DNA of 64,000 bases from Candidatus Nomurabacteria bacterium (GTDB lineage: Bacteria > Patescibacteriota > Minisyncoccia > Phycocordibacterales > UBA918), in the NCBI GenBank assembly GCA_020632135.1, contig JACKGC010000001.1:517124-581123 (forward strand), written 5' to 3'. Shown piece after piece: positions 4,346-5,953 of the stretch. Position 1 is the stretch's first letter. Every line of letters begins with the position of its first letter. The position numbers and the translations under genes are program-made. The notes beneath the pieces were generated by a model, which was not told the origin of the DNA, made no database searches, and saw nothing but the letters and a program-made list of their open reading frames with translations.

Positions 4346-5798
4346 AGAGTTTGATCCTAGCTCAGGATGAATGCTGGCGGCGTGGATGAGGCATGCAAGT
4401 CGAATGGGTTTAGACCCATGGCGGACGAGGTAGGAACACGTAGGTACGCACCCAAAAGTCAGGGATAACCCGGTGAAAATCGGAATAATACTTGATGGTC
4501 CCTTCGGGGTAAAGATTTATCGCTTTTGGAGCGGCCTGCGGTCTATCAGCTTGTTGGTAAGGTAACGGCTTACCAAGGCTACGACGGATAGGGGAGGTGA
4601 GAGCCTGACCCCCACCGATGGAACTGCGACACGGTCCATACTCCTACGGGAGGCTGCAGTCGAGAATCTTCCGCAATGGACGAAAGTCTGACGGAGCGAC
4701 GCCGCGTGGTCGATGAAGTCCTTAGGGACGTAAAGACCTTTTATGAGGGAGGAAGTTTATTGACGTTACCTCATGAATAAGGGGCTCCCAACTCTGTGCC
4801 AGCAGGAGCGGTAATACAGAGGCCCCGAGCATTATCCGGATTTACTGGGCGTAAAGGGTGCGTAGGCGGTGATGTTAGTCGGGTGTTAAATCCTTGGGCT
4901 CAACCCAAGGCTCGCATTCGAAACGGCATCACTAGAAGAAGTCAGAGGTAAGCAGAACTCTCGGTGTAGGGGTGAAATCCGTTGATATCGAGGGGAATAC
5001 CAAATGCGAAGGCAGCTTACTGGGACTTTCTTGACGCTGAGGCACGAAAGCATGGGTAGCGAATCGGATTAGATACCCGAGTAGTCCATGCCCTAAACGC
5101 TGTCTGTTGGTTTTGGGGGGAATCGACCCCCTCCGAGACGAAGTTAACACGTTAAACAGACCGCCTGGGTAGTACGAGCGCAAGCTTAAAACTCAAAGGA
5201 ATAGACGGGGGCTCGCACAAGCGGTGGATCATGAGGCTTAATTCGTCGATAAGCGAAAAACCTTACCGAGGCTAGAAACCATACTGCATACTCTCTGAAA
5301 GGAGAGTAGCCTTCGAGGGTGTATGGCAGGTGATGCATGGCCGTCGTCAGTTCGTGGCTTGAGCTGTTCCCTTAAGTGGGGAAACGAACGCAACCCTCGT
5401 TGCCTGTTACAAGTGTCAGGCGAGACTGCTCCCTCACGGGAGAGGAAGGTGAGGATGACGCCAGGTCAGCATGTCCCTTGATGCCTCGGGCTGCACTCGT
5501 GATACAATGGGAAGTACAACGGGACGCAATATCGTAAGATGGAGCAAATCCTAATAAAACTTTCCTCAGTTCGGATTGTGGGCTGCAACTCGCCCACATG
5601 AAGCCGGAATCGCTAGTAATCGTGAATCAGCACGTCACGGTGAATACGTTCCCGAGCCTTGTACTCACCGCCCGTCAAGTCAGGGGAGTCGGGAGTGCCC
5701 GAAGGTCGTCCTTGCGGCGAACTACGGTAAACTCGATAACAAGGACTAAGTCGTAACAAGGCACGGCTAGCGGAAGCTGGTCGTGGATTAATTCCAAT
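4346..5798 (+). rRNA. rrs: 16S ribosomal RNA (3' boundary uncertain, see findings)
   Basis: Starts agagtttgatcctagctcag. Contains ctcctacgggaggctgcagt (from 4641), gtgccagcaggagcggtaatac (from 4796), ccgcccgtca, aagtcgtaacaagg, and helix 45 with a GGAA loop at 5763-5784. Total about 1450 nt. No 23S or 5S anywhere in the window. Confidence 0.95.
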
Positions 5799-5892
5799 TG
5801 GACACGTTGTCGTGTTGCGGTGACGCAGCACAATGACAGCTAATTGGTCGATCTGGTAGGTATCAATTGAGCCTATCAGGGAGCATAATACT
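5789..5892 (+). other. Structured 104-nt element after 16S helix 45 (insertion within the 16S 3' tail, or structured trailer)
   Basis: Hairpin 1: ccaattgg 5794-5801 / ctaattgg 5840-5847, ttgtc 5807-5811 / gacag 5835-5839, gtgttgcg 5812-5819 / cgcagcac 5824-5831, GTGA loop. Hairpin 2: tggtagg 5854-5860 / cctatca 5872-5878. Confidence 0.4.
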
Positions 5893-5902
5893 CATCTCCT
5901 AA
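5893..5902 (+). other. Anti-Shine-Dalgarno-like decamer CATCTCCTAA
   Basis: 8 of 10 identical to the E. coli 16S tail CACCTCCTTA. Complementary to the AGGAG/GGAGGTG motifs upstream of leadered genes in this window. Confidence 0.4.
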
Positions 5903-5926
5903 CCTGGTATTAGACTTTAGGGAAAG

Positions 5927-5953
5927 ACCTAACCAAAGGATAAGACAAAAGTG
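5927..5953 (+). other. 3' strand of the 16S precursor processing stem
   Basis: Complement of 4230-4252 (19 perfect bp plus 4 bp). Confidence 0.7.

Follow-up and report, generated by a model that had tools for sequence, protein, structure and literature searches.

The 16S rRNA gene in the stretch of DNA analyzed here (the window, 64,000 nucleotides (nt) of contig JACKGC010000001.1) is the unlinked 16S gene of a Kaiserbacteria-like bacterium within the Paceibacteria (Parcubacteria, Candidate Phyla Radiation (CPR)), and it has lost the CCUCC core of its anti-Shine-Dalgarno (anti-SD) motif in place, its tail reading GGAUUAAUUCC. The region beyond this tail is very probably a conserved, folded 3' trailer of the 16S precursor in a lineage of Paceibacteria that lacks the anti-SD and starts translation chiefly on leaderless mRNAs. 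An initial annotation of the same DNA had noted the missing anti-SD and had offered two explanations, namely that mature 16S rRNA carries a structured insertion of about 100 nt between helix 45 (h45) and a displaced anti-SD, the decamer CAUCUCCUAA at 5893-5902, or, as a fallback, that the anti-SD was lost and the decamer is coincidental. The comparative data support the fallback, in line with the relevant passages of two surveys in the literature (PMC9297842; PMC10783764). What results is chiefly a correction: the region is neither a displaced anti-SD nor a new class of 16S insertion, and anti-SD loss in this clade is already published.

Using cmscan, we placed the Rfam small-subunit (SSU) rRNA model RF00177 at 4339-5798 on the plus strand with a score of 1386 bits (gathering score 50); the match spans model positions 1-1533, the full length, and the alignment contains no internal insertion. 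The Rfam scan found no 23S or 5S gene in the 64 kb, and the 16S gene stands unlinked. A focused cmscan aligned the model tail GGAUcACCUCCUUu, with high posterior probability, to the window tail GGAUUAAUUCCAAU, confirming that no anti-SD follows helix 45. The window 16S does not end in the canonical 3' tail GGAUCACCUCCUUA with its CCUCC core, and UAAUUCCAAU sits where CACCUCCUUu belongs. Because the model ends at 5798, an alignment to it, the check that the initial annotation had proposed, does not score 5789-5892 as an insertion. Degeneration of the CCUCC core is also seen at the 3' end of eukaryotic 18S rRNA, GGAUCAUUA. The features of the gene and of the region around it are as follows.

4230-4248, plus strand: 5' strand of the processing stem, CACUUUUGUCUUAUCCUUU, a perfect 19-bp complement of 5935-5953
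5762-5785, plus strand: helix 45, 10 bp with a GGAA loop at 5772-5775, intact by cmscan alignment and coordinate mapping
5785-5798, plus strand: 3' tail GGAUUAAUUCCAAU, in the position of GGAUCACCUCCUUA but without the CCUCC core, common to 72 related loci
5793-5802, plus strand: mini-hairpin UCC-AAUU-GGA at the former anti-SD site
5806-5811 with 5835-5840, plus strand: hairpin P1 (P1 and P1b 89-90% paired)
5812-5819 with 5824-5831, plus strand: hairpin P1b, closed by the GNRA loop GUGA at 5820-5823
5847-5852, plus strand: single-stranded GUCGAU motif between P1 and P2, near-invariant in alignments A1 and A2
5853-5864 with 5869-5879, plus strand: hairpin P2, 11 pairs with an apical C-AAUU-G, also in the RNAalifold prediction
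5880-5912, plus strand: H-type pseudoknot formed by S1 and S2
5880-5883 (GGAG) with 5896-5899 (CUCC), plus strand: pseudoknot stem S1, outside the covariance model
5886-5891 (UAAUAC) with 5907-5912 (GUAUUA), plus strand: pseudoknot stem S2, 91% paired
5917-5921 with 5928-5932, plus strand: hairpin P4 (UUAGG/CCUAA), 90% paired with compensatory changes in five of five pairs
5935-5953, plus strand: 3' strand of the processing stem, AAAGGAUAAGACAAAAGUG, a perfect 19-bp complement of 4230-4248
6001-6036, both strands: bidirectional intrinsic terminator, a 16-pair stem ahead of a T run, which closes the 16S-only transcription unit

The window was compared with loci labelled L001-L240 from two scans: one genome per GTDB species, searched with the h45 signature, gave 120 loci, and a metagenome scan added a further 120. 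Non-canonical tails occur in about 50 of the 120 h45-matched genome loci, nearly all of them labelled CPR/Patescibacteria or as unclassified metagenome-assembled genomes, with a few labels that are evidently wrong. The named anti-SD-less loci include Kaiser-, Nomura-, Jorgensen-, Nealson-, Taylor- and Lloydbacteria together with the cultured Minisyncoccus archaeiphilus. The best 16S matches to the window, at 90-95% identity, are L018 (Candidatus Kaiserbacteria), L109 (Candidatus Paceibacteria) and L106 (Patescibacteria UBA918), and by these closest matches the window belongs to the Parcubacteria/Paceibacteria. Five genome loci have the exact tail TAATTCCAATTGGA, with 16S genes 90-95% identical to that of the window and trailers merely 70-76% identical. 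The whole tail-sharing set comprises 72 loci, from which 62 distinct trailers were aligned.

We built a covariance model from the family trailer alignment and realigned 70 sequences, 17 of them from more distant anti-SD-less lineages, counting pairs in six nested helices and in the one pseudoknot stem, S1, that lies outside the model. Standard pairs fill 93.1% of 2,657 cells, compared with 32-39% when the partners are slid by 1-3 columns, and 41 of 41 pairs have changed on both sides, although for the nested helices the model-fitted alignment leans toward structure, a bias that S1 (87% paired, compensatory changes in four of four pairs) escapes. Compensatory cells number 585 against 148 in shuffles, and not one of 500 shuffles reaches any of the observed pairing measures. 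Folded as a single sequence, the window trailer has a minimum free energy of -69.7 kcal/mol (z-score -4.5), with CUCC paired. In the search of related 16S genes and the covariation test, both suggested by the initial annotation, the element is present in all 70 aligned relatives, with no presence/absence polymorphism, and its helices covary. Covariance-model searches found it solely beside 16S genes and once per locus.

The initial annotation had folded 5789-5892 on paper into two hairpins. Both are present, and coordinate mapping reproduced the GNRA loop that it had seen at 5820-5823, but the fold comprises five nested helices and a pseudoknot, and the second hairpin has 11 pairs rather than 7. 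In P1 and P1b 12 of 12 pairs have changed on both sides, and P2 is 99.5% paired with compensatory changes in all 11 pairs. S1 is a 4-5 bp stem whose sequence varies widely among relatives (GAGA/UCUC, GAGAG/UUCUC, GAGU/ACUC, AAGG/CCUU, GGACGAU/AUCGUCC, AUGGUA/UGCCAU and others). Conserved single-stranded segments accompany these helices: the GAAAGA loop of P4 is conserved at 90% or more, and this loop, GUCGAU and UCAAUUGA are conserved across the 70 sequences. At the former anti-SD site itself, a small hairpin persists in varied sequences (UCC/GGA, CUCA/UGAG, UUCA/UGAA, GUCA/UGAC); its three pairs all show compensatory changes in distant anti-SD-less lineages (CUCA/UGAG, UUCA/UGAA), and it may be a precursor-processing structure kept after the mRNA-pairing sequence was lost. 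A competing long-range helix, CCAAUUGG (5794-5801) with CUAAUUGG (5840-5847), is predicted by RNAalifold and by the minimum-free-energy fold. It shows no covariation, its 90% pairing reflects near-invariance of both sides (87.7% in shuffles) and it is absent in distant members, so that as an alternative to the mini-hairpin it is neither supported nor excluded. As a separate observation, the apex of P2 (window 5862-5871, columns 137-146 of A2) is always a 6-nt palindrome, mostly CAAUUG and otherwise CGAUCG or CGUACG; changes that preserve a palindrome go beyond a simple tetraloop and could reflect loop-loop dimerization or a DNA-level site.

The folded region is enclosed by a stem between leader and trailer. 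The 19-bp pairing of 4230-4248 with 5935-5953 that the initial annotation had described is perfect, and in relatives with the leader present the stem measures 16-27 bp with compensated differences (L106, UGUCCCAUCC/GGAUGGGACA with CCCA/UGGG; also L145, L131, L138 and L208). The stem begins 33 nt past the decamer, a distance that the initial annotation had put at about 25-30 nt and had taken to support a 3' end at about 5902 and hence a displaced anti-SD. That support does not hold up in the comparison, since in 29 CPR loci with canonical GGAUCACCUCC the 3' strand of the stem likewise lies far downstream, at a median of 106 nt (52-353) after GGAU, against a median of 150 nt in 60 anti-SD-less loci. 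Trailers of about 100 nt are thus found in canonical loci too, long trailers being the rule across the phylum, and the stem geometry does not favor a distal 3' end. Canonical CPR trailers moreover have the same order of elements as the anti-SD-less family: hairpin, hairpin, GUCGA, hairpin. Their tails form a CUCCUU-UCU-AGGGAG hairpin in 63 of 67 distinct canonical loci (from L001-L120; mostly Patescibacteria, with a few other phyla), and because a complement of the anti-SD thus lies 3-5 nt downstream, the precursor would mask the anti-SD in a hairpin. GUCGA occurs no more than 120 nt from GGAU in 103 of the 165 tails that lack an anti-SD (62%) and in 33 of 71 canonical CPR tails (46%), where we estimate about 11% by chance. 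In the trailers of L001-L240 the (G)GUCGA(U) motif is found 40-125 nt after GGAT, single-stranded and between two hairpins, and it may be a processing-site signal.

Translation signals were assessed in 56 window genes obtained by crude open reading frame (ORF) calling and in 254 genes pooled from the family loci. A TANNNT hexamer ending 5-9 nt before the start was observed in 18 of the 56 window genes, where 3.4 were expected, and 37% of the 254 family genes have such a box 5-9 nt upstream. This -10-like box is often GGTATACT or TATAAT (for example at starts 17002, 20310, 22762, 24836, 28586, 43538 and 52827), and the most enriched upstream 5-mers are TATAC, ATACT and GGTAT. A -10 box abutting the ATG indicates leaderless mRNAs. 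In the same pipeline AGGAG ranks 51st among upstream 5-mers in the anti-SD-less loci, compared with 3rd in canonical-anti-SD CPR. The regions from -20 to -2 showed no better hybridization than coding or shuffled controls with any of three partners, the real tail, the decamer region and an E. coli-type tail; the mean duplex energy was -2.79 kcal/mol upstream, -3.18 in coding and -3.06 in shuffled sequence, which corresponds to the SD-scarce class iv as set out in the relevant part of PMC10783764. An SD of the GGAAU type, which would pair with the real tail, was considered and set aside, with no enrichment in the window or in the pooled family loci. GGGGG is enriched at -12 to -3 of starts in the pooled family loci (11 against 1.2 expected), a figure that repeated counting of orthologous loci may have inflated.

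On this comparative evidence we read the stretch between 5789 and the 3' strand of the stem, approximately 146 nt long, as very likely a pre-16S 3' trailer rather than an insertion in mature rRNA. The leader strand 4230-4248, pairing with 5935-5953, would form an RNase III-type substrate; the folded trailer would then be trimmed back to leave a mature 3' end near 5790-5800; and ribosomes without an anti-SD would initiate mainly on leaderless mRNAs. CPR bacteria mostly lack Era, which recognizes GAUCACCUCC, but retain RNase III, RNase J and PNPase (PMC10582724; PMC12641178).

Several points weigh against this reading. Removal of the trailer and the probable position of the mature 3' end are deduced by homology alone, and the homology of trailers between lineages with and without an anti-SD is proposed from element order and GUCGA, without an alignment; the family covariance model R1 gave no matches in the canonical-anti-SD loci. 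AGGAG/GGAGG at SD spacing is about 3-fold enriched in the pooled anti-SD-less loci (about 6-fold in canonical CPR), and SD-like motifs are kept before some orthologues, which would go unexplained if SD pairing had been lost completely. The 64 kb in view may also be accompanied by a further 16S gene elsewhere in the genome.

One alternative accepts that the anti-SD was lost but keeps part or all of the folded trailer on mature 16S rRNA as a 3' expansion domain; the mini-hairpin at 5793-5802, for example, might lie in the platform cleft, where the SD/anti-SD helix normally sits. The strong conservation of structure and loops across the 70 sequences and the covarying hairpin precisely at the former anti-SD site are what such a domain would predict. 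Conserved folded spacers are, on the other hand, normal in pre-rRNA, as the E. coli RNase III stem and the cyanobacterial internal transcribed spacer helices illustrate, and divergence is much faster in the trailer than in the 16S gene (70-76% against 90-95% identity). Other CPR members, besides, have the same element order after a canonical anti-SD, so that the mature end must precede it there. Metagenome contig ends, used as a proxy for the mature 3' end, showed no informative pile-up. We consider a retained domain quite unlikely. A more specific proposal, which we judge distinctly unlikely, is that the covarying mini-hairpin, possibly with the whole pseudoknotted domain, acts on the mature 30S subunit as a substitute for the SD helix or in docking leaderless mRNAs, the AGGAG motifs being read otherwise than by the 16S tail.

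The segment 5789-5934 could instead be an independent functional RNA co-transcribed with 16S, either a ribozyme generating the 3' end by self-cleavage or a regulatory RNA that binds protein. A covarying pseudoknot with invariant single-stranded motifs would suit such an RNA, as would the reduced set of ribosome-biogenesis factors in CPR genomes (PMC12641178). No Rfam 15 family, self-cleaving ribozymes included, matches 5799-5934 at E-values up to 10, however, and at that limit the non-SSU matches near the trailer are sub-threshold and anchored in the terminator. The confinement of the element to the side of 16S genes, once per locus, also argues against independence, and with rnc conserved and RNase III, RNase J and PNPase retained in CPR (PMC12641178) conventional processing is available. 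We regard this as very improbable. Nor does the segment look like a coding insertion, as there is no plus-strand ORF of at least 60 amino acids in 5789-5953, which contains just the end of a minus-strand ORF (5613-5831) lying inside the rRNA gene.

Least probable is that mature 16S rRNA carries a structured insertion of about 104 nt from h45 to a functional, displaced anti-SD CAUCUCCUAA that pairs with AGGAG-type SDs. The mismatch count given by the initial annotation is right: CATCTCCTAA at 5893-5902 has 2 mismatches to CACCTCCTTA, an 8/10 identity with E. coli that speaks for such an anti-SD. But, counting both strands, the window contains 74 matches to the decamer with at most 2 mismatches (about 1 per 1,700 nt per strand), so about 0.09 are expected by chance in a trailer of some 156 nt on one strand, and the decamer alone is not significant. 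Among the 62 distinct family trailers, the window alone matches CACCUCCUUA at 8/10 or better, the others having 3-5 mismatches; absence of the decamer from relatives, which the initial annotation had named as evidence against its own proposal, is what we found, in 61 of 62 trailers of the same fold. CUCC occurs in 8 of the 62, at scattered positions. Conserved rRNA does not flank 5789-5934 on both sides, as the model ends at 5798 and the decamer, the sole rRNA-like sequence downstream, is not conserved. The decamer includes the 3' strand of S1 (CUCC 5896-5899), where it is base-paired in a covarying stem. As the S1 variants of relatives mostly have A-U where the window has G-C, the resemblance is a by-product of the stem: CAUCUCCUAA is the 3' strand of S1, and its likeness to an anti-SD comes from one lineage-specific A-U to G-C exchange.

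The initial annotation had also enlisted five leadered genes with SD-type motifs in favor of the distal anti-SD. The motifs themselves are present, at 691-696, 1428-1432, 6581-6586, 15194-15200 and 10561-10566 (minus strand): AGGAG lies at a spacer of 3-12 nt in four window genes, with starts at 705, 1440, 6590 and 10552 (minus strand), where 0.53 are expected, and GGAGGTG lies upstream of a 64-amino acid ORF at 15205. Four to five genes with AGGAG/GGAGGUG at SD spacing, against an expectation of about 0.5-0.9, do speak for the displaced anti-SD, but the inference to the decamer fails. L142 has AAGGAG, L212 GAGGUG and L225 AGGAG before orthologues while their trailers lack any CUCC; motifs that persist where the trailer CUCC is absent cannot depend on the decamer, and, as described above, upstream regions hybridize to the decamer region no better than controls do. 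We give the displaced anti-SD almost no credence.

Anti-SD loss of this kind has precedents. According to the relevant passages of Tsurumaki et al. (2022; PMC9297842), just 48% of Parcubacteria yielded the anti-SD motif, and the anti-SD-less lineages overlap the group without uL1, for which the authors conclude that SD helices do not form. The corresponding part of a 2024 survey (PMC10783764) lists Candidatus Campbellbacteria, Wolfebacteria, SR1 and Peregrinibacteria as SD-scarce and without CCUCC. The window resembles the 16S genes described there in lacking CCUCC after helix 45, in lineage and in the rarity of SD motifs. The searched passages of both surveys describe absence of the motif alone, and do not mention a hairpin at the site, a folded trailer or a leaderless promoter signature. 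Full-text searches returned no further paper on anti-SD loss in Parcubacteria, although descriptions of the trailer fold were not specifically searched, and full-text literature searches found no report of leaderless initiation in Patescibacteria or Parcubacteria. Losses in insect endosymbionts, haemotropic mycoplasmas and some Flavobacteria (Lim et al. 2012; PMC3457768) show the same decay of CCUCC, by C-to-U/A change or deletion, with loss of SD signals as well; in the window family, by contrast, the alternative start signal is clearly of the leaderless kind, with a -10 box right next to the ATG, and not an A-rich leader.

With other bacterial pre-16S spacers the trailer shares long complementarity between leader and trailer around the 16S and covarying spacer helices. 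It differs in its length (about 146 nt, where E. coli has about 33 nt), in its H-type pseudoknot, in the 16S-only operon and in having no Rfam family. Brown and colleagues are said to have described, in 2015, insertions and intervening sequences in CPR 16S rRNA genes; PMC9297842 also has a section on insertions. The organisms are the same, and the relatives L018 and L106 have insertions of about 1 kb inside 16S; unlike these, 5789-5953 has no rRNA flank on its 3' side and no ORF, falls beyond the end of the SSU model but for 5789-5798 and occurs in every relative. In L018, L106, L121, L128, L134 and L197 the distance from the leader stem down to h45 is 2,360-2,700 nt, compared with 1,520 nt in the window, indicating internal insertions of about 0.9-1.2 kb in the 16S genes of these loci that the window gene lacks.

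The finding combines a known trait with another case in the familiar class of structured rRNA spacers, and its novelty is modest. Beyond the published surveys it adds that the anti-SD site retains a small hairpin through compensatory change, that the 16S trailer is pseudoknotted and well supported while lacking an Rfam family and that the genes bear a strong signature of leaderless promoters, as suits a ribosome lacking an anti-SD. The lineage would serve reasonably well as a natural model of SD-independent initiation and of minimal rRNA processing. The cultured M. archaeiphilus PMX.108 (L105, NZ_AP038758.1), which has the tail GGAUCAUUUAUUU without an anti-SD and, in its trailer, a pseudoknot-like element, is an organism in which the mature 3' end could be mapped experimentally.

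Two further loci bear on how the tail changes among relatives. Within the first 30 nt after GGAT, L072 has a canonical anti-SD, CACCTCCTTTCTA, followed directly by TTCAATTGAA, the mini-hairpin of the anti-SD-less lineages (the anti-SD is followed by UUCAAUUGAA), an arrangement which suggests that the anti-SD may have been lost through a deletion of about 11 nt. L072 was considered as the closest canonical relative, but the 3' end of its 16S is no nearer the window than that of other canonical loci, and it stays a lead. The tail of L022 (Ryanbacteria), TTTCTCCTAGTAAGGA, is intermediate.

Elsewhere in the 16S gene, the 515F region at 4796-4817 reads GTGCCAGCAGGAGCGGTAATAC instead of the near-universal GTGCCAGCAGCCGCGGTAATAC, and standard primers would mismatch it. 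Convergent with the 16S, on the minus strand at 6044-6484, lies a pilin-like gene. Among 30 window ORFs annotated with Pfam are cell-wall, glycosyltransferase and type IV secretion-like genes as well as a single TP_methylase, which we take to be RsmI-like; nothing in this set bears on initiation. Finally, the window contains a 64-nt exact direct repeat (7008-7071 and 7162-7225) made up of the 3' 61 nt of tRNA-Ile(GAU) (6994-7068) plus 3 nt, the copies lying 154 nt apart. Rfam reports the downstream segment as a truncated tRNA (34.6 bits), and the repeat looks like the att-site scar of an integrated or excised element.

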